Assembly (NCBI GenBank): GCA_965219575.1
Contig: OZ244779.1
Coordinates: 1,100,769 to 1,164,768 of the forward strand
Reading direction: 5' to 3'
DNA from: Candidatus Oxydemutatoraceae bacterium
Lineage (GTDB): Bacteria > Pseudomonadota > Gammaproteobacteria > Poriferisulfidales > Oxydemutatoraceae
DNA length: 64,000 nt
A program made the position numbers and the translations under genes. Below the pieces are notes generated by a model, which was not told where the DNA came from, made no database searches, and saw only the letters and a list, made by a program, of their open reading frames with translations. Positions 205 to 61,188 of the stretch are shown one piece after another. The stretch's first letter is position 1. Each line of letters opens with the position of its first letter.

Positions 205-580
205 CCACCCGTAGAGGTGGACTTGCATGTCCACCCTTAACTACCGTTCGGTACGAACCCAACCGCTTGCGCCATTTTGTTTTGGTTTCCATAATATTAA
301 TGGGTGAACGCGTTAATCGTGCAAACATGATGTATTTCGGGCGGACATGTTAGTCCGCCCCTACACATGTCGTTTACATTGCGGTTCGGTACGAACCCAA
401 CCGCTTGCGCCATTTTGTTTTGGTTTCCATAAATTGAATGGATGAATGTATAAATCGTGCCGATCAACGCGTTACGGGCAGAACAGAGCCGCCGATTGAG
501 CCAGTAGGTCAATCGGCAATTTTGAAGTCCGCCCCTACAACTTTATGAAATACTTTTTCAACAGCCCCACGGCACAACCA
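205..580. repeat. Mosaic intergenic repeat cluster (inverted REP-A pair, D-filled REP-A, B TIR)
   Basis: REP-A at 211-236, inverted REP-A at 339-364, D-filled REP-A at 476-538, TTTTTCAACAGCCCC ending at 568. Confidence 0.9.
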
Positions 581-660
581 TTCCATGGAAAGGTTATATA
601 TTCTGCCAAACATTACCCAAAATAGCTTATAATACTAGGATTATTCAATAATATCGTTAA

Positions 661-1653
661 ATGACATATTACCGTATCTACTATTTATTCTTGACATCTC
701 TTTTTCTGGGCCTAATCCAGTTGAATTCTTTGTACGCTCAAGAAGAAGAGGATGTTCAGGGTACGACTCAAACCGAAATTCGCCTGTTGCCCGAGGATAT
801 AGGAGACAGTTCCGCAAGTACTAAAAATGAAGCCGAAAAGGCGGATACCGGTGAGCGGGATGTTGCCGAAGAAGAGCCTGTCGGAGAGGACGAGCGCATG
901 GAAAGAGATATTCAAGCCATCATGCGGCGGATGGAGGCTAGAGAAAACCGAGCTAGAAAAGCCAAACTACTCGATTACGATGTAGTTAATCGTTTTCCGC
1001 ATCGTCAGGAGATTTTTACCCAGGGGCTGATAGTAGACGGCGATACATTGATAGCAAGCAGTGGTGGTTACGGCAAGTCGTCGTTGAGTAAGGTGAGCCT
1101 CAAAGACGGCGAAGTGTTGGCGGAAGAAGAATTACCGCCGCATCTTTTTGCCGAAGGTGTTGCGCGTCTCAAAGGCTCTCTTTATCAACTTACCTACAGA
1201 AGAGGAGTGCTGATGGTCTACGATGCGGACACGCTGCAATTGAGCAGTCAACTTCAATATAGTGGTGAGGGTTGGGGGATAACGAGCAACGGTAAAGAAT
1301 TAATTATGAGCGATGGTTCCGATATATTGAAATATATGGACCCTAATAACTTTAAGGAAACCAAGCGCATATCGGTGACCGAGAACGGCCGCCCGCTTAA
1401 ATATCTGAACGAGCTCGAATGGGTAAACGGAAGAATTTATGCCAATGTGTGGTTGCGGAATAAAATCGTCATAATCAATCCTAGAACAGGCGTGGTCACT
1501 TCTTATCTGGACCTCAAGGAATTATTGGACGAAGTGAGAGCCGAAACGAAGACCGGTGTCTTGAACGGCATCGCTTACGATAAAAAAGGTAAAAGACTTT
1601 ATGTGACCGGAAAGAACTGGCCTACCTTGTTCGAGATTGAAATTGACTCTTGA
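661..1653 (+). CDS. Glutaminyl-peptide cyclotransferase (bacterial/plant beta-propeller type) with signal peptide and acidic linker
   Basis: Motifs FTQGL, FAEG, GEGWG, SDGS, LNELE, ANVW, LNGIA, VTGKNWP. Confidence 0.85.
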   Translation: MTYYRIYYLFLTSLFLGLIQLNSLYAQEEEDVQGTTQTEIRLLPEDIGDSSASTKNEAEKADTGERDVAEEEPVGEDERMERDIQAIMRRMEARENRARKAKLLDYDVVNRFPHRQEIFTQGLIVDGDTLIASSGGYGKSSLSKVSLKDGEVLAEEELPPHLFAEGVARLKGSLYQLTYRRGVLMVYDADTLQLSSQLQYSGEGWGITSNGKELIMSDGSDILKYMDPNNFKETKRISVTENGRPLKYLNELEWVNGRIYANVWLRNKIVIINPRTGVVTSYLDLKELLDEVRAETKTGVLNGIAYDKKGKRLYVTGKNWPTLFEIEIDS

Positions 1654-1693
1654 AGTAAGGCCGCATAATCACCCTTGCGTGTCTTAAATAACC

Positions 1694-4234
1694 ATGCCCG
1701 ATTTTGCCAAAGAAATTCTTCCGGTTAGTTTAGAAGCCGAGATGCGTAAATCCTATTTGGATTACGCAATGAGTGTGATTATAGGCCGTGCTTTGCCCGA
1801 TATTTGCGACGGTTTGAAACCGGTACATAGACGCGTACTCTATGCGATGCACGAACTTCATAACGATTGGAACAAAGCGTATAAGAAATCGGCACGCATC
1901 GTCGGTGATGTGATAGGTAAGTATCACCCGCACGGCGATAATGCGGTATACGATACCATAGTACGGATGGCACAAACCTTCTCTTTGCGCTATCCGTTGA
2001 TAGACGGACAAGGTAATTTCGGTTCTATAGACGGTGATGCTCCTGCGGCGATGCGCTATACCGAGGTCCGGCTTGCGAAAATAGCACACGAACTGCTTGC
2101 CGACATAGATAAGGAAACGGTCGATTTCATTCCCAATTACGATAATTCCGAGAAAGAACCCGTAGTCTTGCCTTCGCGGGTGCCGAATTTGCTGGTCAAC
2201 GGTTCTGCAGGCATTGCAGTCGGTATGGCGACGAATATCCCGACCCATAATTTGGGTGAGGTAATCGATGCCGTTTTGGCACTTGCGAAGAACCCGGATA
2301 TATCGATAGACGATTTGATTCGCTACATTCCGGGACCGGATTTTCCGACCGCCGCCATTATCAACGGGCGCGAGGGGTTGCACGAAGCCTATCGTAGTGG
2401 GCGTGGACGCGCAGTGATGCGTGCCAAGTGCAAAATAGAACCCATAAAAAAAGGAGAGCACGAGCGTATTATCATCGAAGAACTGCCGTATGCGGTCAAT
2501 AAAGCACAGTTGCTCGAGAAAATTGCCGATTTGGTCAAAGAAAAACGAATTGAGGGTATTTCCGAATTACGCGACGAGACCGACAAGGAAGGCATGCGCG
2601 TCGTTATAGAATTAAAGCGTAGAGAGAACAGCGAAATCATACTCAATAATCTGTACAAACATACCAAGATGCAATCGACATTCAGCATCAACATGGTTGC
2701 GCTACAGCAAGGTCAGCCGAAGCTATTTAACCTCAAGGAAATTCTAGAGGCCTTTCTGCGGCATCGCCGTGATGTTGTCACCAAACGCACCGTGTTTGAA
2801 TTACGCAAAGCCAAGGACAAAGCACATCTTTTGGAAGGGTTGGCGGTTGCGCTTGCCAATATAGACGAAGTGATTGCGCTGATAAAAAGTTCGCAGACAT
2901 CGGCCGATGCCAAACGTGCGCTCAGCGGGCGGGCGTGGAAACCGGGGGCGGTTATGCAGCTCATGGAGAAAGCCGATGCGGTGATATCCAAACCGGACAC
3001 TCTGCCTGCCGAATTCGGCTTACACGAAGACGGTTATCATTTATCCGAACAGCAAGCGCAAGCGATACTAGACCTGAAACTTCATCGCTTGACCGCATTG
3101 GAGCAGGACAAAATAGTCTCCGATTACGAGGAGCTTATTGCATTGATATTGGATCTACTCGAAATACTCTCCAACCCCGATCGTTTGATGAAGGTGATTT
3201 GCGACGAGTTAAAGAATATCAAGAAGCACTACGGCGACGAGCGCAAGACCAAGATAGTAGACCAATCGGTTGACATAGACGAGGAAGATCTGATTACCGA
3301 AGAGGATATGATGTTGACGATATCGCACGCCGGCTATGCCAAAATACAACCGCCCGATCATTATCGCGCCCAGCGCAGAGGCGGCAGAGGAAAGACGGCA
3401 ACCGCCGTCAAAGAAGAAGATTTCATAGAAATGATGTTCGTTGCGAGTACGCACGACACCCTATTATGTTTTTCCAACCTAGGACAACTCTATTGGATCA
3501 AGGTTTATAAATTACCCCGAGCCGGACGCACCGCCAGAGGCAAACCCTTGGTCAATCTGCTCAAACTCGGTGAGGACGAGCGTATCACTACGATACTACC
3601 GATAAAGTCTTATGCAGAAGGTTTGTATATTACGATGGCAACCGAGAGAGGAATCGTCAAACGCACGCCGTTGACGGCATTTTCCAGACCGCGCAGCAAC
3701 GGTATCAGGGCGATCAATCTGAAAGCAGGCGACAAAATGATAGGTGCGGTGTTAACCGACGGTGCGAGAGAAATCATGCTGTTCAGCGATGTGGGGCGTG
3801 CGGTTCGCTTTAAGGAATCCGACATACGCTCGATGGGTAGAATAGCCCGTGGTGTCATAGGAATGCGACTGCCCGAGGGTGCGAAGATTATTTCTTTGAT
3901 TTGTTTATCGGAAAGAGATGAGGGAAAAGTTAAAATTTTGGTCGCAACCGAAAACGGCTACGGCAAGCGAACCTATGCAAAAGAGTTTTCTACCAAGCGG
4001 CGCGGTTGTATGGGAACGATTTCTATAAAAACCAGCGAGCGCAACGGCAAAGTAATAGGTGCGCTACCCTTTGCCGATGTCGACGAAATCATGTTGATTA
4101 CCGATAAAGGCGTGCTGGTTCGCACCCGAGTGTCTACCATCTCTACCGTAAGCCGTAATACGCAAGGTGTCAGGCTGATACGGCTCGACAACAATGCAAA
4201 GCTATCGGAAATAGTGCGCATAGATAAGGAATGA
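1694..4234 (+). CDS. gyrA: DNA gyrase subunit A
   Basis: [24 protein letters not shown], GyrA box QRRGGRG. Confidence 0.98.
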
Positions 4235-4261
4235 TCGTCGCTTAGCGCAAAGCTCGAACTT

Positions 4262-4591
4262 GGGATTGTTGAAAAATACCGTTTTGCATGAATAATGTGT
4301 TTACCGACCAAATTTATGCTTACCCACCGTAGGGGCAGACTAGCATGTCTGCCCTTAAGTATCGTTTTGCACAACACCAACCGCTCTGCGCCGACAAATA
4401 ATGGTTTCCATAAATTAATGGGTAAACGCGTTAATTGTGCAAACATGATGCGTTTCGGGCGGACATCATTAAATTGCCGATTGACCTACCGGCTCAATCG
4501 GCGGCTTTATACTGCCCCTACAGGTGGTCTGGGTAATTATATGGCGCAAGCGGTTAGATTTGTGCGATGCCAGTACTTTTTCAACAGTCGA
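4262..4591. repeat. Mosaic repeat cluster bounded by degenerate B TIRs
   Basis: GGGATTGTTGAAAAA...TTTTTCAACAG enclosing a REP-A and a D-filled REP-A (4457-4521). Confidence 0.85.
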
Positions 4592-4613
4592 GCCCAAGCA
4601 ACACGCAATCTAT

Positions 4614-5693: not shown

Positions 5694-5708
5694 AAGGCAA
5701 GCAGTGTA

Positions 5709-8117: not shown

Positions 8118-8134
8118 CTTTAGATGCTCCGACT

Positions 8135-9178: not shown

Positions 9179-9215
9179 GGTCTTTTATATTTGTCAGTAT
9201 AATGTGGAAGCATAG

Positions 9216-9832
9216 TATCATTACATCCATAATTAAACAAGGATAAAATTATTATATCCACCAAAGCTCAACCGTCTTTGCAAAAATTTCCACGAACCGT
9301 AGGGGCGGACATCAAAATTGCCGATTGACCTACTGGCTCAATCGGCGGCTCTGTTCTGCCCGTAGCGCGTTGGTCGGCACGATTTATACATTCATCCACC
9401 CGATTTATGGAAACCAAAACCATACGGCGCAAGCGGTTGCAATTGTGCGAAACGGCACTTTTTCAACAGCCCCACATTTCTACTTTGGGTTGACACATAT
9501 TTCTCTATCATTACATCCATAATTAAACAAGGATAAAATTATTATATCCGCCCAAGCCCAACCGTCTTTGCAAAAATTTCCACGAACCGTAGGGGCGGAC
9601 TAACATGTCCGCCCGTAGCGCGTTGGTCGGCACGATTTATACATTCATCCACCCGATTTATGGAAACCAAAACCATACGGGCAAGCGGTTGCAATTGTGC
9701 GAAACGGCACTTTTTCAACAGCCCCACATTTCTACTTTGGGTTGACACATATTTCTCTATCATTACATCTATAATTAAACAAGGATAAAATTATTATATC
9801 CGCCCAAGCCCAACCGTCTTTGCAAAAATTTC
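9216..9832. repeat. Tandem duplication (290 bp + 252 bp + partial) of a mosaic repeat unit
   Basis: TATCATTACATC.ATAATTAAACAAGG begins at 9216, 9506 and 9758; each full unit has REP-A, a B TIR and a 22-bp IS1202 end. Confidence 0.92.
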
Positions 9833-9904
9833 TTATAAAAAGATGTCGCGTGCTTCAATAGGACCGGCAACAGGCTATAATATGCCCGAAGGAATATTGA
9901 AAAT

Positions 9905-10780: not shown

Positions 10781-10815
10781 ATATCCAAAATTTCACTAAT
10801 TAAAAGGAGCTTGTC

Positions 10816-11541
10816 ATGAGCAATACCATTCCTAATATCTCGTTATTCAACTTGGCGTTGAGTTTTATTCCGATGCTGGTCAGCGTGATTATATTCTATT
10901 GGTGGTCTGTAGGAATACGCACGACTTTATACGCATTCAGTCGGATGCTTCTCCAACTGATATTGGTCGGTTATCTATTGACTTATCTGTTCGCTGCCGA
11001 GCACGACATTATTCTTATCGTAGTATTGTGTGTGATGATACTGGTGTCGGCGTGGATTTCTCTGCGTCCTTTGGCACACAAAAACTTCCAACTTTATCTT
11101 AAATCTTTATCGGCAATCGCATTGAGCGGCACCCTGATTTTATTTTTCACGCTGGAGTTCGTTTTGGATCTCGAGCGTTGGTTGACACCGAATTATTTAA
11201 TTCCACTGGCCGGTATGATTTATGCAAATGCGATGAATTCGGTAAGCCTTGCCGCCGAACGATTTGATACCGAGATAAAAAACAATGTCGGTTATATCGA
11301 TGCGCGTAAAACCGCATTGCAGACCTCGCTGATACCGTCGCTCAATTTATTTTTTGCAGTAGGTTTAGTTTCTCTGCCGGGAATGATGACCGGTCAAATA
11401 CTCGCCGGTGTCTCTCCGCTAATAGCCGTCCGCTATCAAATCGTCATTATGAGTATAATTTTTGCCGCCGGTGCCGTTTCGGTATTCTTTTATTTATTGC
11501 AGATGAGAGAACCACCGATTGAACTTGTAGGGGCGGACTAA
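10816..11541 (+). CDS. UPF0014/YbbM(FetB)-like ABC permease
   Basis: R..LQL..VG, IP..GM, GLVSLPGMMTGQILAG.SP..AVRYQI. Confidence 0.85.
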   Translation: MSNTIPNISLFNLALSFIPMLVSVIIFYWWSVGIRTTLYAFSRMLLQLILVGYLLTYLFAAEHDIILIVVLCVMILVSAWISLRPLAHKNFQLYLKSLSAIALSGTLILFFTLEFVLDLERWLTPNYLIPLAGMIYANAMNSVSLAAERFDTEIKNNVGYIDARKTALQTSLIPSLNLFFAVGLVSLPGMMTGQILAGVSPLIAVRYQIVIMSIIFAAGAVSVFFYLLQMREPPIELVGAD

Positions 11542-11985
11542 CATGTCCGCCCTTAAGTACCGTTCTGCACGACACCAACCGCTTGCGCCAACAAATAATG
11601 GTTTCCATAATATTAATGGGTAAACGCGTTAATCGTGCAAACATGATACGTGGGGCTGTTGAAAAAGTGCGGGCATTGCACAAACCTAACCGCTGTGCGC
11701 CGTGAATATTCGCAAACCGCCGTAGGGGCGGACTTATATAAATTGCCGATTGACCTACTGGCTCAATCGGCGGCTCTGTTCTGCCCGTAACGTTGACCGG
11801 CATGATTTATACATTCATTCATCCAATTTATGGAAACCAAAACCAAATGGCGCAAGCGGTTGAGTTTGTACAGAACAGTACTTAAGGGCAGACATGTTAG
11901 TCTGCCCCTACAACTCGGTGGTTATCGTAAATTCAATGGCGCAAGCGGTTACGATCGTGTAAAACGATATTTTTTCAACAACCCA
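11509..11985. repeat. Mosaic repeat cluster
   Basis: D half-site plus REP-A at 11527, B TIR at 11652, D-filled REP-A 11722-11786, inverted REP-A, right B TIR. Confidence 0.88.
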
Positions 11986-11991
11986 AGTATC

Positions 11992-13668: not shown

Positions 13669-13671
13669 ATG

Positions 13672-13903
13672 CCGTTATGCACAACATCAACCGTTCTGCG
13701 CCAATAAATAATGGCTTCCATGATATTAATGGGCGAATGCATCAATCGTGCAAATATGATGCATCTCGGGCGGACATCATTAAATTGCCGATTGACCTGC
13801 CGGTTCAATCGGCGGCTCTATACTGCCCCTACGGGTGGTTTGCGTAATTAGGTGGCGCACAGCAATTGGATCTGCACGATGCCAGTACTTCTTCAACAGC
13901 CCC
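13672..13903. repeat. Mosaic repeat cluster inside the C1-cofactor gene cluster
   Basis: D-filled REP-A 13768-13832; B TIR ends 2 nt before ATG 13906. Confidence 0.85.
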
Positions 13904-13905
13904 AA

Positions 13906-17038: not shown

Positions 17039-17516
17039 GTTATGAATAAACGTATTTCAAGCGCAGACCTCTTAAAAATTATAGATCGTGCGCTTGATGA
17101 ACAAGGTATCTCTGCCCGCCAAGCCTCTATTCTTGCCACCGGCACTCCCGAACTTATTCGCAATATGCGTCGGGGGCGTGTGCCTTCGGTGGAGAGATTC
17201 TACGCTTTATGCGATACCCTAGACCTAGAGTTTTATGTAGGTCCCAGATACCATCGAAAATCACCTTCGGTTCGTGCCGTTAGCGAAAGAAAAACCATGT
17301 CCGATATGCTCGAAGAGATAATATCTCGATTACCTCCTCGTAAAATCCTGCAGCAAACATCGAAGCCCGACAAATCATATAAAGACTCAAAATTAGGTAG
17401 TGCGTATCGGATTCCTGTTTGTAAGCGCAAAGTAGTAATGTCACCTTTCGCCAAAGTAGAAATGTCACCTTTAGGGGACAATAAAGCATTTTTAACCCAG
17501 CTTAGGAGAAGATGCA

Positions 17517-18826
17517 ATGAACGAAGGAACTTACTCTATGTCAGACAAAGAAATAGAACGCCACCATGTCCTCAAGCGATGCTTGGAGGAAAAATTACCG
17601 AGAGCCAAGGCCGCACAGATGCTCAACATCAGCGTCCGCCATGTGAAGCGATTATTAAGTGCCTATCGCAAGCAAGATATCAAGGCACTGATATCTAAAC
17701 GACGCGGTAAGCCTTCAAACAATAAAATACCGGAGACAATCAAACAACTAGCCGTTAAGCTCATTCGTGAGAACTATCACGATTTCGGACCGACTTTTGC
17801 ACATGAGCAGTTGTTTGAATGTCATGGGCATTTATTTGACCGCTCATTCAGCGTTGAAACCTTGCGCAAGTGGATGATTGCAGAGGGGCTACACCAGGGT
17901 AAGCGACGCAATGCAATCAAAACGCATCAAAGCCGTCCCAGACAAACTGGCTTCGGCAAACTCATACAGATTGACGGTTCGACCCACGATTGGTTTGAAG
18001 GGCGAGGCGACCCCTGCACGCTCATTATATTTATTGACGATGCCACCTCACAGATTACCGCATTGCATTTCTGTGCTGCCGAGACCACCTTTGATTATAT
18101 GCGAACACTCAAACAGCATATCCAACGCCATGGCTGCCCGTTGTGCCTGTATTCCGACCGCCATAGCATCTTTAGCAACAATGCCAAAGAGCAACACATC
18201 TTTCAACAACCGACCCAGTTCCAAAGTGCTTTGCAACAAATGGAAATTGAACTATGCCTGGCACGCACACCGCAAGCTAAAGGACGCGTTGAACGCGCAT
18301 TCAAAACCCTGCAAGACCGATGGGTCAAACTCATGAGGCTTCACAACATCTGCTCTATTGAGGAAGCTAACCAGTTTGCTCAATGGTATCTCCCAAAACA
18401 CAATCAGCAGTTCGCCACGAAGCCTCTAGACAGCCACGACTATCATCGCAAAATGCCTCTCACCCAGCGAGAATTAGCACTGGCTTTGTCTAAACAGAGT
18501 ACTAGAAAGTTATCGAAAAACCTCATCTGTCAGCATCATAATATACAGTATCTTATCAAAACCAAGAAACCCGGTTATGCGATGCGTGGCGCATCGGTCA
18601 CCGTGTGCGAGCTACTCAATGGCGAGATTGTCATACTCTACAAAGGGCGGGAGTTGGCGCATGATATCTACTGCGAACACCCCCACTGTCTCAACCGTAC
18701 AACGACAAAACAATCAATCTAGCGGTAGATGAGATTGTGGCAAAACACCGTCGCGGTCATAAGCCGAAGCCGACCCACCCGTGGAGACGCTACAATAAGG
18801 ATTATCTCAGTGCCAAGCAGAAGTAA
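17517..18826 (+). pseudogene. IS1202/ISNCY DDE transposase with a -1 frameshift near the C-terminus
   Basis: QIDGS.HDWFEGRG, IDDAT, YSDRH, PQAKGRVER.FKTLQDR; one extra C in the C5 run (18680-18684) restores ...KPKPTHPWRRY..* ending at 18826. Confidence 0.85.
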
Positions 18827-18931
18827 TCAGAACCGGTGTTTTCCCAGACTTACGCACAGGCTGTCTAACATGCCTGTGCCACTGCAAACGCATCATTCGT
18901 CAAACCACGAGATAGCAACCGAGCACCACAC

Positions 18932-19189
18932 ACGCTCTAAAATGCTTGGGAATTGGAAGGTAGTAGAGTTCATCTCAACTAGAGATCGTCTCTTAACGGC
19001 ACGCTATAGAGCTTGTTTTTTAGTCGGCAAGCCTGATTTAGGCAAAAACAAGCACTGGCACCGCATACGCTCTAAAATGCTTGGAAATTGGAAGGTAGTA
19101 GAGTTCATCTCAACTAGAGATCGTCTCTTAACGGCACGCTATGGGGCTTGTTTTTTAGTCGGCAAGCCTGATTTAGGCAAAAACAAGCA
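18932..19189. repeat. 135-bp-period direct repeat in the IS 3' non-coding region
   Basis: Near-identical copies 18932-19054 and 19067-19189, each with a GCTTGTTTTT...AAAAACAAGC stem. Confidence 0.9.
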
Positions 19190-19751
19190 GTATTAGCCAA
19201 TTTATCACCTAGTCGAATAATCAACTAACGGACATAAAGTAATCTTAGATATCTAGTTTCCTGAAGGTTTTATCGGCATCAAGGGTGACATTTCTACTTT
19301 GGTCAAGGGGGTGACATTTCTACTTTGGGTTGACATATCGGATTCCTGTTTTTGAGACGGATACCGCTATGGATGATACCTCGATCAATAAGGAAAAACG
19401 CGCTGTGGGTCATATATCTTTTCAGGAAAGTTGGTTCAACGGACAAGGTTTGAATCCGGAATACTGCATCATCGTACAAATCCTAGATCACTCGATGGAA
19501 CCCACCATAGCAACTCACTCAATGGTTTTGGTAGACCTTTCACGATACCGCCGACGGCAGGAGCGTATCTATGCAATACGCATCGGCGATAATCTCATTG
19601 TCAGGCGGCTTAGCAAAAACAAAGATAAATGGCAGTTAGTCGCCGACCACCCGAAATCAAAGCCGGAACCTTTTCCGAGTTCTGCGGAGATTATCGGAGA
19701 AGTCAGATGGATGGCAAAAACCTTCGGCTAAGCACTTTAGCTGCATAGCAC

Positions 19752-20098
19752 GGTGGTTGTGTCGTGGGGCTGTTGAAAAAGTACCGTCAGTGTGCAACCG
19801 TAACCGCTTGCGCCGTAAATTTATAATAACCACAAAGCCGTAGGGGCAGACCTGTGTGTCTGCCCTAAAGTACCGTTCTGCACGACACCAACCGCTTGCG
19901 CCGTATGGTTTTGGCTTCCATAAATTGGATGAATGAATGTATAAATCGTGCAGGCGCAACGCGTTACGGGCGGACATAATAATTGCCGATTGACCTACTG
20001 GCTCAATCGGCGGCTTTATATTGCCGATTGACCTACTGGCTCAATCGGCGGCTTTATACTGCCCCTACCACTCTATGAAATACTTTTTCAACAGCCCT
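19752..20098. repeat. Mosaic repeat cluster (B-bounded; REP-A holding a double D insert)
   Basis: GGGGCTGTTGAAAAA at 19766; two tandem D units inside REP-A 19967-20068. Confidence 0.9.
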
Positions 20099-21160: not shown

Positions 21161-21740
21161 GGACAGAATAGAGTTGCGTGTCTGCATAAGTATAGTGTAG
21201 GTGTATTCCCCTCCTGTGGAGGGGTGGCCTATGCATTTTGCAATGCACGCGTTTAGCAGTCATGTTGAGGCTCTGAACAAAGTCACGCCGATTGACCTAC
21301 TGGTTCAATCGGCGGTTCTATTTAGTCTGACGGGGTAGTCGCGTCGTGGGGCTGTTGAAAAAGTATCGCCAGCGTGCAACCGTAACCGTTTGCGCCATGA
21401 ATTTATAATAACCACCAAGCCGTAGGGGCAGACCTGTGTGTCTGCCCTTAAGTATCGTTCTGCACAGCCGGAACCACTTGCGCCAACAAATAATGGTTTC
21501 CATAATATTAATGGGTGAACGCGTTAATCGTGCAAACATGATACGTTACGGACGGACATGCCAGTCCGCCCCTACGGCGGTTTGTAAATATTTACGGCGC
21601 AAGCGGTTGAGTTTGAGCGATGCCCGCACTTTTTCAACAGTCGCGTCGTATTTGCACGATTTATACATCCATCCAATTTATGGAAACCAAAACCAAATGG
21701 CGCAAGCGGTTAGATTTTTGAGATGCCAGTACTTTTTCGA
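21129..21740. repeat. Mosaic repeat cluster (C with 94-bp insert, B-MITE)
   Basis: C hairpin at about 21207-21228, insert 21229-21322, B-MITE from 21348. Confidence 0.88.
21348..21644. mobile_element. B-MITE with 5-bp TSD GTCGT
   Basis: GTCGT at 21343-21347 and 21645-21649 flanks GGGGCTGTTGAAAAA...TTTTTCAACAGTCGC. Confidence 0.7.
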
Positions 21741-23132: not shown

Positions 23133-24229
23133 GGGGCTGTTGAAAAAGTATCGCCAGCGTGCAACCGTAACCGTTTGCGCCATGAATTTATACAAACCGC
23201 CGTAGGGGCGGACTGGCATGTCCGCCCTAAAGTGTCGTTCTGCACAGCCGTAATCGCTTGCGCCGTATGGTTTTGGTTTCCATAAATTAACTGGTGTACG
23301 ATTTTATTTGTGCAAACGCAGTGCGTTTCGAGAAGGTATGTTATCTCCCTACGGTTCATAAAATACTTTTTCAACGGCTCCGTCGTATCTGCACAAGCAC
23401 GGTGTCTGCCCATTCCCTTACTGTGGCGGGTGCAATAGCCCCACGTTCTTGGCATTAGTTCACAAAAAGCACGACCACACTGAGAATAGAACATACCGAA
23501 ACAAAAATGCCGATAGCGAGCCCAACACCCCATTTATAAATGTTATCTCTCAATTTAGATTGTTCTCTTAAGATGTCATCTCTCAATTTAGATTGTTCTC
23601 TTAAGATGTCATCTCGCAATTTAGATTGTTCTCTTGCAATGGTCGCAATGTCCTTTTTCATTTCTACAATATCGGTTTTTATATTCAAGATGTCGGTTTT
23701 CATAACCGCCATCTCAACTTCAACATTGTTTAGTCTCAGTTCTATATTTTTTATATCGGCTTTCATATCTACGATGTCGGCTTCAATATTGTTTAGTCTC
23801 AGTTTCATGCTTTCTATATCGGCTTTCATGTCTGCCATCTCGGCTTTCATGTCTACGATATCGGCTTCAACATTGCTTAGTCTTAGATCTATACTTTCCA
23901 TATATAAACCTGCCTTGTCCGATTGTGGGGGATGTGTTTCCGATTCTAGAAAGTCTAGCGTTGACTTCATTTCGAGCACCATTTTGTAAATAGTTTCAAT
24001 CGTTAAGTTATCTACATTTTCTATATTTTCCATTTTTAACCTCTTTAAGTTGAATTATAAGAAAGAGCCTGCGTTATAGCAAGCCGTCTAATCGCAATCG
24101 GATTATAAATTCGGCTAGAGGGTGCTGTTTCGCGTTTCCGACGAACGGTATCAAAAATATGGATGAACTTGCAGAAGCCATTGATTGAGGTCATAGGTTA
24201 ATCGGCCGATACCATCTTTCAACGGCTCC
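23133..24229. mobile_element. Composite B-TIR-bounded unit carrying a coiled-coil gene; 5-bp TSD AGCGT
   Basis: AGCGT(23128-23132)-GGGGCTGTTGAAA...TTTCAACGGCTCC-AGCGT(24230-24234). Confidence 0.6.
23455..24033 (-). CDS. Heptad/hendecad-repeat coiled-coil protein with C-terminal TM anchor (Bdr/DUF1640-like architecture), copy 1
   Basis: MKADIxx/LRLNN heptads, LRDDILREQSK repeats, hydrophobic tail; AGAGG SD. Confidence 0.8.
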   Translation of the reverse strand: MENIENVDNLTIETIYKMVLEMKSTLDFLESETHPPQSDKAGLYMESIDLRLSNVEADIVDMKAEMADMKADIESMKLRLNNIEADIVDMKADIKNIELRLNNVEVEMAVMKTDILNIKTDIVEMKKDIATIAREQSKLRDDILREQSKLRDDILREQSKLRDNIYKWGVGLAIGIFVSVCSILSVVVLFVN

Positions 24230-30939: not shown

Positions 30940-31540
30940 CCACCCCGTCAGGCTGAATAGAACCGCCGATTGAACCAGTAGGTCAATCGGCGTGACTTTG
31001 TTCAGAACCTCAACATGACTACTAAATGCATGCATTGCAAAATGCATAGGCCACCCCTCCAGAGGAGGGGAATGTACCGACGCTATACCTTGTGCAGATA
31101 TTTCTGCAACCACCCCGTCAGGCTAACGCCTGCCACCCCTCCAAAGGAGAGGAATTGACTCGTGCAGACCCTTAGGGGCTGTTGAAAAAGTATCCACGAA
31201 CCGTAGGGGCGGACTTGCATGTCCGCCCGTGACGCGTTGGTCGGCACGATTTATACATTTATTCACCCGATTTATGGAAACCAAAACCATACGGCGCAAG
31301 CGATTACGGCTGTGCAGAACGATACTTTAGGGCAGACACACAGGTCTGCCCCTACGACTTTGTGGTTATCATAATTATGTGGCGCAAGCGGTTACGATCG
31401 TGCAAAACGGTATTTTTCAACAGTCCCCCTTAGCAACCACCCCGTCAGGCTAACGCCTGCCACCCCTCCAAAGGAGGGGAATTGACTCGTGCAGACCCTT
31501 AGCAACCACCTCGTCAGGCTTTTCGCCTGCCACTCCTACA
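30940..31540. repeat. Array of C repeats with a 94-bp insert and a B-MITE
   Basis: Four C units on the minus strand; insert 30956-31049. Confidence 0.9.
31175..31427. mobile_element. B-MITE with TSD CCTTA
   Basis: CCTTA at 31170-31174 and 31428-31432; empty site GCAGACCCTTAGCAACCAC at about 31491-31509. Confidence 0.8.
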
Positions 31541-39619: not shown

Positions 39620-39994
39620 ACCATTCCCCTCCTGTGGAGGGGTGGCAGGCTGTGCCTGACGAGGTGGTTGTGTCGTTGGGGCTGTTGAAAAAGTATTTCA
39701 TAAAGTTATAGGGGCGGAACAGGGTCGCCGATTGAGCCAGTAGGTCAATCGGCAATTATGATGTCTGCCCGAAACGCGTTGCGCCTGCACAATTTATACA
39801 TTTATTCACCCGATTTATGGAAACCAAAACCATACGGCGCAAGCGGTTGGTGTCGTGCAGAACGGTACTTAAGGGCAGACACACAGGTCTGCCCCTACGG
39901 CTTGGTGGTTATTATAAATTCACGGCGCAAGCGGTTACCGTTGCACGCTGACGATACTTTTTCAACAGCCCCACATTACTACTTTGCGCTTACA
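39620..39994. repeat. Mosaic repeat cluster ending in an IS1202 left-end copy
   Basis: C unit, B TIR at 39678, D-filled REP-A, REP-A, right B TIR, then ACATTACTACTTTGCGCTTACA at 39973-39994. Confidence 0.9.
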
Positions 39995-42709: not shown

Positions 42710-43190
42710 CAGTGTCGGTACATTCCCCTCCTTCGGAGGGGTGGCAGGCTGTGCCTGACGGGGTGGTCGCATCGTGTCTGCGACAAGTGCAGTGTTGGTA
42801 CATTCCCCTCCTCTGGAGGGGTGGCAGGCGCAGCCTGACGGTGTGGTCGTGCCGTATCTGCACTGCTTAATTCCCCTCCTCTGGAGGGGTGTCAGGCGAA
42901 GCCTGACGGGGTGGTTGCAGAAGTTTCTGCACAAATATAATTTGGTTTCGTTCAATAAAAGAGGCAAGAGAGACTATAGAAGACTAGCGTATAGATTATA
43001 ATGAAGTGCGTCCGCACAGCGCATTGGGTTATCAACTCCCGAGTGTATTTGCGGAGGCAATAGCATGAAAACTAATTTTGCAAGTGGTCCTAAAAATGGG
43101 TAACGTCAACACGACCACCCCTCCAAAGGAGGGGAATTGGTTAGTGCAGATACGCCACGACCACCCCTCCGAAGGAAGGGAATTAGCTTG
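42710..43190. repeat. Array of C repeats flanking an IS3 remnant
   Basis: Three direct C units 42723-42916 and two inverted partial units 43114-43183. Confidence 0.88.
42943..43108 (+). pseudogene. IS3-family (IS407-like) transposase 3' remnant with right end
   Basis: WFRSIKEARETIED*RIDYNEVRPHSALGYQLP..FA; terminal GTGGTCCTAAAAATGGGTAACGTCA. Confidence 0.8.
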
Positions 43191-44866: not shown

Positions 44867-45345
44867 CCTATAAGCTCAATCGGCGGATACTGCATTTCGC
44901 AATGTATGCGTCAGCAATGTGTTAAGGTTCTGCACGACACTAACCGATTGCGCCAACAAATAATGGTTTCCATAAATTGGATGGATGAATGTATAAATCA
45001 TGCAGATACGACACAACCACCCCGTCAGGCTACGCCTGCCACCCCTCCGAAGGAGGGGAATTAAATTTTGCAGACCCTTAGCGACCACCCCGTCAGGCTG
45101 CGCCTGCCGCCCCTCCGAAGGAAAGGAATGTACTGGTGCACATACTTCTGCGACCACCCCATTGAAAGGCTTACATTTTGTAGACATTTCAGAGTTCTGC
45201 ACAAAGTCACGCCGATTGAACCGGTAGGTCAATCGGCGGCTCTACTCTGCCCCCACGGCTCGGCGGTTATCGTAAATTCAATGGCGCAAGCGACTGTTTG
45301 TACAGAACGGCACTCTTCAACAGCCCCGTGTATCTGCACGACATT
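44863..45345. repeat. Mosaic repeat cluster (D, C x2, D/A hybrid, B TIR)
   Basis: Same modules as the other clusters. Confidence 0.85.
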
Positions 45346-45447: not shown

Positions 45448-46389
45448 ATGAACAAAGAACAGAAAAAATATTTACCACTGACCAAAGACCGCGTCTTCAA
45501 ACGATACTTCTCAACTAATAAACAGGTACTGCTCTCGCTGATCAAGAGCTTTCTGCCGATCTCCGATAGTGCCTCGGATATGGTGATACTGAACCCTGGA
45601 AAAAACAACACAGAGTCCGAGTCTGCAAAGCAACCACAGAGTCAATCGGACGATAAGTTGCATCTGGAAGACAGTGTCATCCCACCGAGCACGCCGGACA
45701 GCAAGCAAGTCGTACTAGACCTCAATGTTAAATTGAATAGTGGCGAGAATGTTAGCATAGAAATGCAGGTCTATCGTGAGAAACACTTTCTGGGTAGAAT
45801 GTTGCTCTATTGGGCACAGTTGCATACGCATGTCGTAAACCGTGGACAAAAGTATAGCAAGATTAGTCCGACCTACTTGCTGGCATTCACCGACTTCACG
45901 GTATTTGGCGACACAGACGAACATATAGACCAACTAGAAATCAAATCGATTAAGCATCTGAATAAGAAACTCAAGATGGATTTAACGATAATGATAGTGG
46001 AACTAAACAAATTTAATAAGAGCTACTTAGAGCTAGTTGATATGGCTGATAGGTGGTGCTATATTATGAAACACGCAAAGGACTTGACACCCGAGCAGGT
46101 AGCGCATTTATCACAAGACGGAGAGATAAAGATGGCATTAGAGCATTTAGAGAAAGTATCGGAAGAGGAGATAGAGCTGTGGGATTCTATAGCCCACGAC
46201 AGATACAAGCTGGAATACAACTTGGAAAGGGAAGGACTGATAGAGGAAGGCATTGAACAGGGCATTGAAAAAGGTAGGGTTAAAGAGGCTCGAAATATCG
46301 CTTTGAATATGTTGCAAAAGGGCTATAAGGTTTTGGCAATTTCCGAAGTGACGGGTTTATCCGCTGAGGAGATTAAACGGCTCAAATAA
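45448..46389 (+). CDS. Rpn/YhgA-like PD-(D/E)XK nuclease (PDDEXK_2 family)
   Basis: D..FK..F, LD......SGE.V.IEMQ, R...YW, ELNKF, EEGIEQGIEKG, IA.NML..G....I.EVTGLS.EEI. Confidence 0.88.
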   Translation: MNKEQKKYLPLTKDRVFKRYFSTNKQVLLSLIKSFLPISDSASDMVILNPGKNNTESESAKQPQSQSDDKLHLEDSVIPPSTPDSKQVVLDLNVKLNSGENVSIEMQVYREKHFLGRMLLYWAQLHTHVVNRGQKYSKISPTYLLAFTDFTVFGDTDEHIDQLEIKSIKHLNKKLKMDLTIMIVELNKFNKSYLELVDMADRWCYIMKHAKDLTPEQVAHLSQDGEIKMALEHLEKVSEEEIELWDSIAHDRYKLEYNLEREGLIEEGIEQGIEKGRVKEARNIALNMLQKGYKVLAISEVTGLSAEEIKRLK

Positions 46390-46429: not shown

Positions 46430-46777
46430 GAGACTGTGAAAAAGTATCGTCAGCGTGCAGCCGCAACCGCTTGCGCCATTTGGTTTTGGTTTCCATAAAT
46501 CAGATGAATGAATGTATAAATCGTCCATGCATAACGCGTTACGGGCAGAACAGAGCCGCCGATTGAGCCAGTAGGTCAATCGGCAATTTAATTTTAGTCC
46601 GCCCCTACGGCGGTTTGCAAATGTTCATGGCGCACAGCGATTGGGTTTGAGCAATGCCCGTACTTTTTCAACAGCCCCCTTTAGCGACCACCCCATGGAA
46701 AGGCTTTACATTTTGTACTATGTATTAAGTTCTGCACAGTGTTACGCCGATTGACTTACCGGTTCAATGGCGGTTCT
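46430..46777. repeat. Mosaic repeat cluster
   Basis: B-like ends, D-filled REP-A at about 46543-46608, D variant at about 46746-46777. Confidence 0.85.
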
Positions 46778-50221: not shown

Positions 50222-50575
50222 ACTGTAGGGGCGGACTTATATGTCCGCCCTTAAGTGCCGTTCTGCACAGCCGTAACCGCTTGCGCCATTTGGTTTTGGT
50301 TTCTATAAATCGAGTGAATGAATGTATAAATCGTGTAGATACGATGGGGCTGTTGAAAATGTGCGGACATCGCACAAATCTAACCGCTGTGCGCCAACAA
50401 ATAATGGTTTCCATAAATTGGATGGATGAATGTATAAACATAGTACAGATACGACACAACCACCCCGTCAGGCTTCGCCTGCCACCCCTCCGAAGGAGGG
50501 GAATGTACTGCCCCTCAGGTTCGTGGATACTTTTTCAACAGCCCCGGCGTATCTGCACAGGTAGGGTGTCGGTCT
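50222..50575. repeat. Mosaic repeat cluster between pcm and yqaA
   Basis: REP-A at 50225, B TIRs at 50346 and 50545, C unit at about 50458-50504. Confidence 0.88.
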
Positions 50576-51165: not shown

Positions 51166-52009
51166 CACCGAGCCTATACTAAAACTTTGCGCGATGTTGT
51201 TTGCGATAGCCGTACTGTCGGCTTGTGCTACTACTCAAGAGTACTGGACAGGCGATGATAAAGTCGCCTCATCTCCTAAAACCTACACAGTCGACAAAGG
51301 CGATACGCTGTATAGCATCGCTTGGCTTTACGAACTCGATTATCGCCGACTGGCGCAATGGAACGACATCAAGGCACCGAATTATTTGATCTATCCCGGA
51401 CAGCAGTTACGGTTGGACATCCCCGAACCGGCGACCGAACCCGAAGATGAACCCGAATCCGAACCCGAAGCCAAGCAAACAGCCGCAAAGACGATCCGTC
51501 TTTCGGAGTGGCAGTGGCCGTTGAATAAGCCCGAAGTGAAAGCGTTGCCTCGCTCCAACGCACTATTGATGAAAGGTAAACCTTCCGAAGCCGTGCGTGC
51601 AACCGCCGCCGGCATCGTCGTTTATAGTGGTTTTAATTTGAAACATTACGACGGTTTGATTATCATAAAGCACGACGGCGACATCTTCAGCGTCTACGGG
51701 AATAACGAAGCACTTCTGGTAGTAGAGAAAGAACGGGTTGCCGTCGGACAAGAGATTGCGCGGCTGCCGGCATCGCAAGCCGACGCAAATCTGTATTTTG
51801 AAATTAAACATCGCAATAAATCCTTAAAAGCGGTCAATTATTTACCAGCCTTGAAAATAGGGCTGTTAGAAAAGTATTTCATGCATCGTAGAGGCGGGCG
51901 GACATATAAGTCCGCCCCTACAGGTGGTTTGGGTAATTATGTGGCGCACAGCGATTGGATTTTTGCGACGCCTGCATTTTTTCAACAGCCTAAAATATCG
52001 ACTCGTTGA
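51158..52009 (+). CDS. nlpD: NlpD-like lipoprotein (LysM + degenerate M23) with an in-frame 46-aa MITE insert
   Basis: LSAC lipobox, YTV.KGDTLYSIA, W.WP, IIIKH, LYFEI; surE-pcm-yqaA synteny. Confidence 0.85.
   Translation: MFNTEPILKLCAMLFAIAVLSACATTQEYWTGDDKVASSPKTYTVDKGDTLYSIAWLYELDYRRLAQWNDIKAPNYLIYPGQQLRLDIPEPATEPEDEPESEPEAKQTAAKTIRLSEWQWPLNKPEVKALPRSNALLMKGKPSEAVRATAAGIVVYSGFNLKHYDGLIIIKHDGDIFSVYGNNEALLVVEKERVAVGQEIARLPASQADANLYFEIKHRNKSLKAVNYLPALKIGLLEKYFMHRRGGRTYKSAPTGGLGNYVAHSDWIFATPAFFQQPKISTR
51859..51991. mobile_element. B-MITE inside nlpD, TSD AAAAT
   Basis: AAAAT at 51854-51858 and 51992-51996; ends AGGGCTGTT...AACAGCCT; one internal REP-A. Confidence 0.8.
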
Positions 52010-55685: not shown

Positions 55686-55750
55686 AATTCCCCTCCTTGT
55701 AGGGGCGGACTTGCATGTCCGCCCTTAGGGTGGCAGGCGCAATAGCCCCA
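55686..55750. repeat. C unit with REP-A inserted into its hairpin
   Basis: TTCCCCTCCTT-[REP-A 55699-55724]-TTAGGGTGGCAGGCGC. Confidence 0.75.
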
Positions 55751-56497: not shown

Positions 56498-56596
56498 GAC
56501 CGCCGATTGAGCTTGTAGGGGCAGAATAAAGCTGCCGATTGAGCCAATGGGTCAATCGGCAATTCTGATGTCCGCCCGATAGGTTAATCGGCAATA
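56498..56596. repeat. Triple nest: D containing REP-A containing D
   Basis: CCGCCGATTGAGCTT-[56515-56577]-GATAGGTTAATCGGCAAT. Confidence 0.75.
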
Positions 56597-59086: not shown

Positions 59087-59087
59087 A

Positions 59088-61022
59088 GTGAACGAGCAAA
59101 TACGACGGTTCATTATATCGGGCATACTTTTACTTGCGTGTCACAGTGTTTTCGCAAACCAGCTACTGGACAAGCAAAGAGCCGTATATGTCAAAGCCGA
59201 ACAAACGCTCAAGCAGGGGCAGGGTGCTTTCTTTTTGCAACAACGCGACTTGCTAAGCACCTACCCGCTATATCCCTATCTGCTGTATTTGGACATGGCA
59301 AGACGCATCGCATCCGTGGAAACCGACACCATCGTTGACTTTCTGAAGGTTTATGACGGCACGCCGGTTGCCGAAAAATTGCGCTATCAATGGTTGAAGC
59401 ATCTGGCGGCTAGAAACAACCGGCAACTATTTGCACAACACTATCGCACTAACCCGTATCACACCGATAAGGAACTCGCTTGTTTTTATGCGCAGAGCTT
59501 GTTGCAAAGCGGCCGTCTTGACGAACTACGCACTTTGACAGAACAACTGTGGTTGGTCAATTTCTCTCAGCCTTCGGAATGCGATGCCGTTTTTTTGTGG
59601 GGTAAACAGACGCAAGTGATCGACCAAGAATTGATATGGCAGAGAATTCTGCTGGTTGTCAGAGGCGGTCGCTTGAAACTTGCCGATTATCTCGCAAAGC
59701 AATTAGATGCCGACGTACGCAAGTGGTATGATTTGCTCAAGCGAGCGCATAATCACCCGTTTAAAGCATTGGCGGAAATAGAAAGCCACTCCAAGGACTC
59801 TCCTTTTCTGCACCAAGTGCTTTTGTATAACCTGTTTCGGGCGCGCAACGAGGATTTGGATAGAACGCATGCATTGTGGAGGAGCATGGCGCAATCTTTT
59901 AGACCGTATCGCGAGGTATACGAACAAGCGCGCAAAGATTTGGGTATCGCTGCGTGTTGGCAATTAGAACCCGAGATGGGGCTGTACTATCTATCGTCCC
60001 TGAAGACCGCCGTTGCCGACGAAAAATTTCATCATTGGCGCATACGGTGTGCGCTGCGCTTGCAGAAATGGAAAACGGTTTTAGAGACCATTGCAGTATT
60101 AGACGAGCAAGACCGCACGAGTAGCAGATGGCTTTATTGGAAAGCACGGGCACTCGAGCGTTTGGGAAGCGACGAAGAAGCGATCGCAATATGGAAGCGC
60201 AGTGCCTCGGAGGCGAGTTATTACGGTTATTTGTCTGCCGACCGCATCGGTGCGCCGTATGCGTTGTCAACCGCCCTTCCCGATGTCGAGCGAGCAACCT
60301 TGAGAACAGTCGGAGATTTGGCTGCGATGAAACGAATATACGAGTTTTATCACATGGCGCGAATTTTCGATGCCAGACGCGAAATGTTATATCTGTTGGG
60401 CAGGGTGGGCAAAGATGAACGCTTGGGTATTGCATTGCTATGCAGACAATGGGGTTGGGCGACTTGTGCGATCGAAGCATTGAGCGACCCGGTGTTTTGG
60501 CATAAAGAATTAGAGCTACGTTTTCCGATGCCGTATCGCGAACTCGTCGGAGCGCAAGCTCGTCTAGCCGATCTGCCGGCGTATTGGATTTATGCGGTGA
60601 TGCGCCGCGAGAGTGCGTTTATAGAAGATATTAAATCACCGGCGGGTGCACTGGGTTTGATGCAGCTGATGCCGGCGACCGCCCGTCGTGTCGCGCAAGA
60701 TGTGAAACTCGGCTACGCCTCTAATCGATCGCTATTGCAACCCAAGCTGAATATGCGGCTGGGCAGTACTTATTTAAGGCAAATGTACCTCGTCAACGAC
60801 CGAAACTGGGCAGCGGCACTTGCCTCGTATAACGCCGGACCTCATCGTGCTAAAAAGTGGAAATCGCAATCACCGGTGTCCGATGCCGATATATGGATAG
60901 AGACGATACCGTTTACCGAAACTCGTCGTTATGTCAGAGCCGTCCTGTTCTATACGGTTGTCTATTACTACAAACTCAACGATAAGGCGATACGATTGAA
61001 AACCCTGATACGGGAAATTTAG
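59088..61022 (+). CDS. slt: Soluble lytic murein transglycosylase (Slt70-like)
   Basis: YPLYPY, YW.AR, RRESAF, GALGLMQLMPATA, SYNAGP, IPFTETR.YV. Confidence 0.93.
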   Translation: MNEQIRRFIISGILLLACHSVFANQLLDKQRAVYVKAEQTLKQGQGAFFLQQRDLLSTYPLYPYLLYLDMARRIASVETDTIVDFLKVYDGTPVAEKLRYQWLKHLAARNNRQLFAQHYRTNPYHTDKELACFYAQSLLQSGRLDELRTLTEQLWLVNFSQPSECDAVFLWGKQTQVIDQELIWQRILLVVRGGRLKLADYLAKQLDADVRKWYDLLKRAHNHPFKALAEIESHSKDSPFLHQVLLYNLFRARNEDLDRTHALWRSMAQSFRPYREVYEQARKDLGIAACWQLEPEMGLYYLSSLKTAVADEKFHHWRIRCALRLQKWKTVLETIAVLDEQDRTSSRWLYWKARALERLGSDEEAIAIWKRSASEASYYGYLSADRIGAPYALSTALPDVERATLRTVGDLAAMKRIYEFYHMARIFDARREMLYLLGRVGKDERLGIALLCRQWGWATCAIEALSDPVFWHKELELRFPMPYRELVGAQARLADLPAYWIYAVMRRESAFIEDIKSPAGALGLMQLMPATARRVAQDVKLGYASNRSLLQPKLNMRLGSTYLRQMYLVNDRNWAAALASYNAGPHRAKKWKSQSPVSDADIWIETIPFTETRRYVRAVLFYTVVYYYKLNDKAIRLKTLIREI

Positions 61023-61030
61023 CAGTGATC

Positions 61031-61188
61031 TTCCCCTCCTTGCAGGGGCGGACTTACCTGGGGCTGTTGAAGAAGTACTGTTCTGCACGAATATAGTGTC
61101 GGTACATTCCCCTCTTCTGGAGGGGTGGCAGGCGCAAGAACCGCCGATTCTTTTTTCAACAGTCCGGCATTACTACTTTGGGTTGACA
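61031..61188. repeat. Mosaic repeat cluster ending in an IS1202-end copy
   Basis: C/A/B/C/D fragments, then CATTACTACTTTGGGTTGACA at 61168-61188. Confidence 0.82.

Follow-up and report, generated by a model that had tools for sequence, protein, structure and literature searches.

The window analysed here, 64 000 nucleotides from the genome of a Candidatus Oxydemutatoraceae bacterium (G000, 98.9% complete), raises the question of how about 20 intergenic mosaics came to be built from the same few modules nested inside one another, and whether several non-autonomous families assemble them by targeting each other's hairpins and linkers, as the initial annotation proposed. The four modules (A to D) and the linker L were all present at the positions claimed, and clustering of module hits gave 20 clusters in the window, as had been estimated, and 373 genome-wide with a total span of 79.8 kb. 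The module patterns matched 426 (B), 385 (A), 371 (L), 220 (D) and 185 (C) times in the genome, and the same patterns run backwards as controls gave 0 matches. ORFs of at least 150 aa contained 123 of 1755 module hits and 29 of the 385 copies of A. Predicted folding of the C, A, D and D[A[D]] hairpins gave z-scores between −4.05 and −5.19 (A, −5.19), while the A-in-C chimera folded at only −1.52. In 74 of 168 cases a B end lay no more than 30 nt from the C end, as compared with 10.4 for random non-ORF positions (300 draws, maximum 20). The modules are nested non-randomly; random placement relative to each other is excluded, and so is descent from a single ancestral composite decaying by deletion. 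At the gathering score, an Rfam scan of the window returned one tRNA only, with no match of D or the other modules to a known structured RNA. Inspection also led us to drop two readings of the arrays, CRISPR for lack of regular spacers and integron attC by comparison with the attC consensus.

Module A carries a GTAG tag followed by a GC-rich palindrome, and its copies are mostly intergenic. The proposed assignment to the RAYT-type REPs stands: the GTAG hairpin flanks a Y1 HUH gene, its RAYT, and this gene is in turn packaged between B ends. Two full copies of this gene (G000:66437-67000 and 1094898-1095461) and a partial, internally deleted third (G000 1743189) are all enclosed by B ends and have A to their left and right, and five RAYT matches were obtained in G004, one of four congeners compared (G001 to G004). 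Some 5 kb separate the second full copy from the left edge of the window; the earlier statement that the window holds no cognate enzyme is thus correct for assignable enzymes, but one of them is a near neighbour. The ORF encodes 188 aa with HIH and Y motifs, scoring 24.1 bits against PF01797 (cut-off 23) and 49 bits (E 5e-13) against the curated NF047646, under the NCBIfam cut-off of 80. It was detected by self-BLAST and protein search, a Pfam Y1_Tnp family search of G000 having missed it, and no solved relative was found. GTAG-GGGC hairpins flanked all five RAYT homologues examined from other families. About four-fifths of the A copies lie in B or linker context, suggesting that A spreads as MITE cargo. 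The A loop also receives other elements: it is the site of all seven IS110 copies in G000, and A loops of congeners carry short IS110-end remnants.

B is an IS1182-ended MITE, each end being the terminal 17–19 bp of an IS1182 element. Its TIRs are the same as the ends of IS1182 in G001 and G004, and the congener transposase matched NF033551 with 387 bits (cut-off 270). These ends, the target site duplications (TSDs), the empty sites and the intact IS1182 of the congeners support the proposal that B is a MITE moved in trans by a DDE transposase. B is not a family with an interior of its own: the interior consists of A, L, C or D in 142 of 143 B pairs (A in 136, in agreement with the A pairs described inside B), and the subterminal sequence of IS1182 differs from it, so that B is an IS end fused to REP-linker DNA and its interior does not derive from the parent IS. 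An intact IS1182 was not found in G000, which holds only a 32-aa fragment with stops, and IS1182 relatives were not found in viral contigs. The sole DDE_Tnp_1 match in G000, an IS1380, has been hit by a B MITE and is not its partner.

Transposition of B-ended units has been recent and has involved entire cassettes containing A, L and in many cases D or C, since distant, unrelated sites hold 100%-identical copies of 208–209 bp, each with a different TSD. Clean filled and empty orthologous sites for B cassettes were found in comparison with congeners, and a TSD of at least 4 nt was present in 55 of 143 B pairs, as compared with a shuffled mean of 3.7 (maximum 11). Identical copies in a genome without intact IS1182 require us to assume that the element was lost or that transposase was supplied from an unassembled replicon. 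The main target of B in G000 is one fixed position in the C tail, with a 5-bp duplication; 76 of 95 B ends in C tails lie 8 nt behind the C end, and 14 different 5-mers occur among 21 C-tail TSDs of 5 bp. The other targets are A/T-rich A-N-N-T sites with a 4-bp duplication, insertion sites in unique DNA showing a weak A..T bias. Hairpin loops in general are not the target, the TSD falling in a predicted loop at a frequency of 0.26 as compared with 0.30 for random positions. In the two congeners with full-length IS1182 (G001 and G004) the element sits in A loops: of 18 copies read, 17 end in such a loop on at least one side, and 16 have matching ACAT/ATGT duplications.

In the window, the MITE between gyrA and the next gene (B[A..D..A, L]B, 4262..4591) corresponds to a site where the modules are absent in G003 and other B fragments occur in G001 and G004. 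A second MITE, which has lost its left end and carries D in A (13670..13903), has AAAT on both sides, and a short B[A]B unit (51860..51992) has an AAAT duplication; both sites are empty in G001, G003 and G004. B[L A L .. D D A]B at 19766..20098 contains a tandem D. The insertions claimed in C tails at 21348 and 31175 were both confirmed, each as a B[A..A]B unit. The former (TSD GTCGT) lies in the mosaic at 21206..21711, where the D-bearing insert claimed in C at 21229 was found as well; the latter (TSD CCTTA) fills one tail of a tandem C array on the reverse strand (30940..31539), in which one unit has a D insert and the next C tail is empty with the same 5-mer, providing the empty allele, and which coincides with a synteny break relative to G003. 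C, its tail and B[A(D)..A]B follow one another on the forward strand at 39624..39972, and tandem C units with empty tails stand on either side of an IS3 fragment at 42723..43170, a site with different mosaics in all three congeners. At 50225..50545, A and L are followed by B[L..C]B, with C inside B; this site is empty in G004 and has different mosaics in G001 and G003. In line with the claim that accessory genes gather at these platforms, B ends bracket the RAYT gene, a coiled-coil gene and Rpn genes. The coiled-coil gene (23455-24033, five paralogs) is carried in a C tail by a 1.1-kb B-ended unit (23133..24229) with the TSD AGCGT at 23128-23132 and 24230-24234. A forward-strand Rpn (PD-(D/E)XK_2) nuclease gene (45448..46389), one of 15 such loci, lies between a D/L/C/C/D/B mosaic upstream (44876..45327) and a mosaic of degenerate B, L, D in A, B and then a D arm (46430..46754).

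C consists of two hairpins and GGGTGGT, the same build as the hairpins that flank DUF559 (Vsr-like) genes, and its sequence is identical to repeats beside DUF559 nuclease genes in other phyla; the identical sequence occurs at loci L150 and L178, in records titled Sideroxydans and Chlorobiaceae. C-like hairpins adjoin 22 of 30 DUF559 genes, and 10 of 74 C-pattern loci in other genera have a DUF559-like gene within 700 bp, two of them with the same C sequence. The genus differs in that a stand-alone DUF559 gene was found in none of its five genomes, nor in G000 with an HMM of our own, and DUF559 domains occur only inside ORFs of more than 1000 aa (four of the five genomes), suggesting that C either has lost its mover or is moved by another enzyme. 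Viral contigs gave no match to the strict C pattern, and a looser one matched a single phage contig, without a nuclease between the copies. A literature search found no published description of an association between C-like hairpins and DUF559. C was also considered as a CGTC-tagged REP, in which the tag is followed by a stem of 8–9 bp and a loop of 4–5 nt (PMC3733652); it has CGTC on the reverse strand, but there the tag adjoins a 5-bp stem with a 3-nt loop, and this candidate was rejected.

D is a covarying bulged hairpin restricted to the genus, with a 9-bp stem, a 3' bulge, a 2-bp stem and a 4-nt loop. It shows compensatory change in 10 stem types, the inner structure is kept in 29 of 40 distinct sequences, and the loop contains CCTAC, which PMC3333891 gives as the cut site of E. 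coli TnpA-REP. Viral and metagenome contigs contained no D, and neither did 400 further genomes from the class at two mismatches, which left no enzyme outside the genus to link with it; within the genus, no enzyme for C or D was found. Of the 236 GGTTCTAT-type flanks of D, 44 match no known module continuation and many of these run into unique DNA, which could mean independent movement of D. Against unique DNA the end of D is ragged (match of 1–10 nt), D ends show microhomology with the host in orthologous comparisons, as from deletions, and some flanks are chimeric, with mixed loop alleles.

Nesting among the remaining modules follows a different pattern from that of B. D-in-A (A loop, 85 of 231), D-in-C (C insert, 27 of 231), A-in-C (8 of 385 copies of A) and A-in-D (13 of 385) have one fixed junction each, repeated in many copies, and both A-in-C and A-in-D begin after CTT, the complete forms ending on a repeated TAGG-like word. 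Given these single junctions and the short shared words at those of A, the four combinations look like founder events that spread as cargo, hitch-hiking on their carriers, and were reshuffled by recombination. The claimed D in an A loop at 9299 was recovered in a 290-bp tandem pair (9299..9725), where the same A at 9589 has an empty loop; both members run on into L and a right B end. A within the first C hairpin was confirmed at 55699 (forward strand, 55688..55745). The claim of A in D was borne out at 56515, where A itself holds D and thus forms the three-level D[A[D]] (forward strand, 56502..56592); at 11527 only half of it stands, as the left arm of D joins A with no right arm, followed by B[A(D)..A]B (11508..11985; synteny break relative to G003, empty in G001, G002 and G004). 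Further combinations are a C–A junction with B in the A loop and C inside B (forward strand, 61031..61166) and a series that runs from a degenerate A through L, A, L and D in an A loop to a right B end (205..568). The latter site is empty in G001; in G003 the first A is present, its loop occupied by a 42-nt remnant of an IS110 end. Only B and IS110, the latter not noted in the initial annotation, have inserted into another module repeatedly and independently; the proposal of reciprocal targeting is supported in part, and not as far as it has each family targeting the others.

Our preferred reading, with a probability of roughly 0.7, is that the mosaics are a stack of non-autonomous repeats of separate origins, spread mainly by one carrier, B. 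AAGT and L are 22 nt apart in 133 of 138 A tails, the spacing in 212 of 215 B ends is 22–23 nt, and the two sequences are related, none of their 22-mers being identical letter for letter. We infer that the REP loops into which IS1182 inserted belonged to a REPtron or BIME. The IS end and the REP tail have the word AAAGT in common, and deletions between these words would have joined IS ends to REP-linker DNA, the outcome being a MITE with a REP interior. One or a few events of HUH cutting, or of template switching at short words in common, may have placed D in its hosts and single A hairpins in C or D; the inserts would then have ridden along. Crossovers within shared modules would keep generating new combinations and chromosome breakpoints, the IS1182 transposase having probably since decayed in G000. 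A more far-reaching version, tentative and on balance doubtful, is a self-reinforcing community of four enzyme systems, in which IS1182 captured a whole HUH REPtron between its ends and recognises the REP loop and the tail of the DUF559-type repeat as position-specific targets, the main target and the TSD length differing between sister lineages, while D is a RAYT substrate inserted into other hairpins and the arrays act as hubs of gene capture and rearrangement.

Alternatively, each family's own enzyme, past or present, might repeatedly insert it into the hairpins of the others, with D as a second HUH substrate and RAYT inserting single A copies at GTAG/TAGG words in C and D. The maintained structure and CCTAC word of D and the CTT and TAGG-like borders of nested A are consistent with this, and IS1182 and IS110 do target modules. 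However, the single junction per host pair in all or nearly all copies, the failure to find an enzyme for C or D in the genus, and the ragged, deletion-like ends of D make it unlikely.

A few founding composites, followed by homologous recombination, gene conversion and replication slippage without ongoing transposition, could also be envisaged. The 86 of 143 B pairs that lack a TSD call for later recombination in any case; 32 pairs have C-tail halves from different copies, and chimeric D copies, tandem duplications such as 9299-9725 and the lack of an IS1182 gene in G000 point the same way. Against this stand the identical cassettes with a TSD of their own at unrelated sites, the clean filled and empty orthologous sites and the autonomous partners in congeners, by which the model is largely refuted for B; as a complete account we consider it very unlikely, while recombination is the likely route for D, A-in-C and A-in-D.

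Finally, platforms maintained by host selection as terminators, mRNA stabilisers or NIME-like exchange sites, with mobility secondary, would suit the stable hairpins, the D copies at gene 3' ends, the accessory genes and the five clear synteny breaks relative to G003 that fall at modules (a raw count), but are scarcely credible given that orthologous gaps in close congeners are empty or hold different mosaics and that exact matches to C and D are absent from G002, which has two B ends. In four public runs from four studies, the mosaics break contigs and summed depth there is tens-fold higher, which fits real high-copy repeats; no contig bridging an empty site was seen among the matches listed. 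The listing of public runs containing the sequence showed no RNA run.

Among known systems, Bacillus mobile insertion cassettes are comparable to the gene-carrying B-ended units; IS621 is, beside ISPpu9, another REP-targeting IS110 element. The system is a dense, well-resolved version of BIME/NIME-type repeat mosaics rather than a new type, the nesting as such being unusual only in its density. Like REP/BIME/REPIN-RAYT systems, in which REPs are known IS targets (PMC3333891, PMC3733652, bioRxiv 10.1101/279083), A is a GTAG hairpin that occurs hundreds of times between genes, many copies forming inverted pairs with linkers, and that stands beside a Y1 HUH gene. Those systems generally have one full-length RAYT gene per REP type (10.1101/279083), whereas RAYT here is multi-copy and boxed between IS1182 ends, and A travels as MITE cargo. 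As in IS-derived MITEs (PMC3184786), B has short TIRs matching an autonomous IS, TSDs of 4–5 bp, filled and empty sites and movement in trans; unlike them, it retains only the terminal 17–19 bp of the IS, encloses REP/BIME material and sometimes genes, and strongly prefers a fixed position in the C tail. NIME arrays (dRS3, RS, Correia; PMC1797815) are likewise multi-family and intergenic, variable at syntenic sites, linked to recombination and able to take in MITEs and IS. In NIME, however, 20-bp dRS3 inverted repeats flank RS elements (PMC1797815); by inspection against that sequence no dRS3 occurs here, the arrays being made of REP, IS1182 ends, a DUF559-type repeat and D, with nesting that can be read junction by junction. 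The IS110 copies in A loops resemble ISPpu9 (bioRxiv 10.1101/2025.01.17.633520), with the difference that the same loop is also an IS1182 target in congeners and an insertion site of D.

These findings imply that REPs, and even their RAYT gene, can come to be dispersed by a DDE transposon, and MITE-carried REPs offer an alternative route for the open question of REP dispersal. With intact congener copies, defined A-loop and C-tail targets and duplications of 4 versus 5 bp, the genus is a clean test case for IS1182 target choice. C adds a case of a DUF559-linked repeat that persists at more than 100 copies with no stand-alone nuclease gene found.

As context to the modules, an ISNCY element on the forward strand (17416..19336, eight copies in the genome) has B landing sites at its ends. 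A partnership of D with Rpn genes was considered and is unproven, D also lying 3' of unrelated genes. More generally, D often abuts the 3' ends of genes, several Rpn genes included, and at about 6 of the 15 Rpn loci D or a D arm follows closely after the stop codon.

The genome that holds the window (G000) is a single contig of 2.37 Mb, 98.9% complete. Module matches grouped into 373 clusters genome-wide (79.8 kb in total), of which 20 lie in the window; all four modules, A (a GTAG REP), B (the IS1182-type end of a MITE), C (a two-hairpin DUF559-type repeat) and D (a bulged hairpin), occurred together in 59 of the 373, and reversed-pattern controls gave 0 matches. All module positions in the initial annotation were confirmed in the window; among the junctions it cited, that at 11527 proved to be only a half junction, with the other modules in place. 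D was present in four of five genus genomes and in none of the 36 genomes sampled from other genera, C in four of five and in none of 14 other genomes of the family, while exact B ends numbered 71–319 per genome in four genus genomes and 2 in the congener G002. The repeat system is real and unusually dense, yet made of known kinds of element. Of the idea that all four families reciprocally target each other through their enzymes, the evidence supports only the part on B, which was repeatedly and independently inserted behind C.

The 428 B ends of G000 included 286 arranged as 143 inward-facing pairs. A duplication of at least 4 nt was found at 55 of these pairs, compared with 3.7 with shuffled flanks, and B copies of 208–209 bp, 100% identical, lay at distant sites with differing duplications. 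At window positions 13670 and 51860 the orthologous sites were empty in the congeners G001, G003 and G004, and other orthologous sites were empty in some congeners and held different mosaics in the rest. The C tail was the main B site, with 99 and 117 of the 428 ends adjoining its two halves; only 4 of 428 adjoined an A loop. The position of B behind C was fixed (8 nt past the C end in 76/95), while the 5-bp duplications there were variable (14 kinds in 21), as were empty C tails (23 kinds in 39). Since a fixed position is combined with varying duplications, B in the C tail is the result of repeated independent insertion. The 86 B pairs without duplication, 32 of them with C-tail halves from different copies, count against a tidy picture of B insertion. 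Targeting of predicted hairpin loops by B was not supported (target in loop 0.26, compared with 0.30 for random), and at unique B target sites the bias was limited to an A at position −4 and a T at position −1. In C tails genome-wide (e.g. window 42766–42800), the 5–6 nt at the B target were hypervariable even when empty, with conserved flanks.

DUF772 matches numbered 10 in G001 and 11 in G004, and 20 of the 22 genus matches were obtained as loci. The search for an IS1182-type transposase recovered 18 full-length elements with B ends in G001 and G004, whose protein passes the IS1182 model, while G000 held only a decayed fragment. An end lay inside an A loop in 17 of these 18 elements, 16 with matching ACAT or ATGT, and a broken G003 copy was located in a C tail. 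An ISNCY element with 8 copies (window 17416–19336 and 9470–9490) has a terminal motif adjoined by 20 B ends, mostly with an ACAT duplication. At L002 (G000:C1:1763137–1766889), a single IS1380 transposase has a B cassette inserted at its 3' end, again with an ACAT duplication.

Module A is a GTAG-tagged hairpin with an 8-bp stem, present in 385 copies in G000, 311 of them in a B or linker context. Its enzyme was missed by a family search of G000 and then revealed by self-BLAST as a 188-aa Y1 HUH gene (RAYT). The gene occurs in three units, two of 1.1 kb that are near-identical and one with an internal deletion (loci L078, L079 and L250), at G000:C1:66166–67266, G000:C1:1094633–1095732 and around G000:C1:1743189. 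The statement that no cognate enzyme is in the window is to be read with the second of these units, ~5 kb to its left. All three units had B ends at their borders and A on both sides, and were placed in C tails. G004 had five RAYT matches, two within plain A arrays without B, and GTAG-GGGC hairpins stood beside all five RAYT homologues from other families (a sixth, from the unpublished genome G079, was excluded, and no conclusion draws on that genome). A was inside 136 of the 143 B pairs, and the stretch from AAGT to the conserved linker L was nearly equally long, and related in sequence, whether it followed an A tail or a B end, suggesting that B cassettes would have arisen via deletion between a word common to the IS1182 end and the REP tail. 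All seven IS110 copies of G000 lay inside A loops. A lone 42-nt IS110-end remnant was present in an A loop at L039 (the G003 orthologue of window 211) and at a further locus, L010; none was found in G000 outside the seven full copies.

In 300 genomes of the class, C-like hairpins adjoined 22 of the 30 top DUF559 genes, and 44 of 48 C-like hairpin matches near DUF559 genes lay within 1.3 kb around the gene. A collection scan for the C pattern gave at least 125 loci, with flanks for 80; six Porisulfidus loci were set aside, leaving 74. Among the matches listed, the pattern spanned phyla, a DUF559-like ORF lay at most 700 bp away in 10 of 74 loci, often with C on both sides, and the exact C sequence occurred at 2 of these 10. 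DUF559 may move C. The initial annotation had proposed looking for DUF559 genes, and no stand-alone gene was found in the genus genomes. At L038, a locus on a phage contig from the viral set, a lysozyme-like gene is flanked by two C-type repeats in direct orientation.

D forms a hairpin of 27 nt whose stems covary and whose bulge is conserved; it was matched by no Rfam entry and, outside the genus, by none of the viral contigs, metagenome contigs or other genomes of the class searched. Among 231 copies, 85 had the A loop on both sides and 27 had C-insert flanks; mixed flanks included A-left/C-right in 6 and C-left/A-right in 4, with loop alleles mixed in some. Where A lay in C (n=8) or in D (n=13), a left junction after CTT was common to nearly all, and complete forms terminated on a repeated TAGG-like word. 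D and the A-in-C and A-in-D nestings appear to stem from founder events whose products travelled as cargo and were rearranged by crossovers. Against a founder-only view, 44 of 236 GGTTCTAT-type D flanks had no known continuation, many entering unique DNA, and the D loop contains CCTAC, given in PMC3333891 as the cut site of E. coli TnpA-REP; by this analogy, RAYT may act on D. Near G000:C1 positions 631185, 986034 and 1587060, D is joined by hairpins of one more GTAG-tagged family, with stem GGACAAGC, and by another module, of the GGAGCGGACCTTCC type.

Bacillus mobile insertion cassettes, IS621 and the attC consensus form the background for comparison. A literature search, with most subscription journals outside it, gave no report of IS1182 targeting REP loops, of a RAYT enclosed by IS1182 ends or of DUF559-flanking repeats; a REPtron (RAYT plus its REPs) carried by IS1182 ends and the insertion of IS1182 at a fixed position behind a DUF559-type repeat were not found in the literature searched. 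Published accounts describe BIMEs, the mosaics of Neisseria, and REPs that serve as IS targets or lie nested within other palindromes (PMC3733652, 10.1101/279083, PMC3333891, PMC1797815, PMC12907096, PMC3184786, 10.1101/2025.01.17.633520), and the REP family tables of PMC3733652 could include an A-like family.

Cargo between B ends comprised the RAYT in three units, a coiled-coil gene (window 23133–24229, target-site duplication AGCGT) and Rpn genes, the last without such a duplication. The Rpn (PD-(D/E)XK_2) family is expanded, with 15 loci genome-wide including window 45448–46389, nearly all between mosaics; several have their stop codon within or just ahead of a D flank. Synteny with G003 was read by hand from BLAST tables over window 1–19300 and 26100–62000. 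Five clear breaks (9252/9840, 11531/11800, 30922/31570, 35961/36375 and 55669/56676) and a doubtful sixth (61025) were all at modules; this is a raw tally, and mosaics occupy many of the long gaps. A Fic gene, AAA-DUF4143 and a McrBC-like pair form an accessory cluster between mosaics (window 20165–21160, 21801–22961 and 24810–26770), the Fic gene having an apparent frameshift at its start. An insertion of ~150 bp at window 48590–48745, missing in three congeners, resembles the 3' end of the genome's TnpB elements, and window 61270–64000, like many other loci, carries members of an extensive family of secreted, adhesin-like genes with repetitive sequence, in tandem up to tens of kb.
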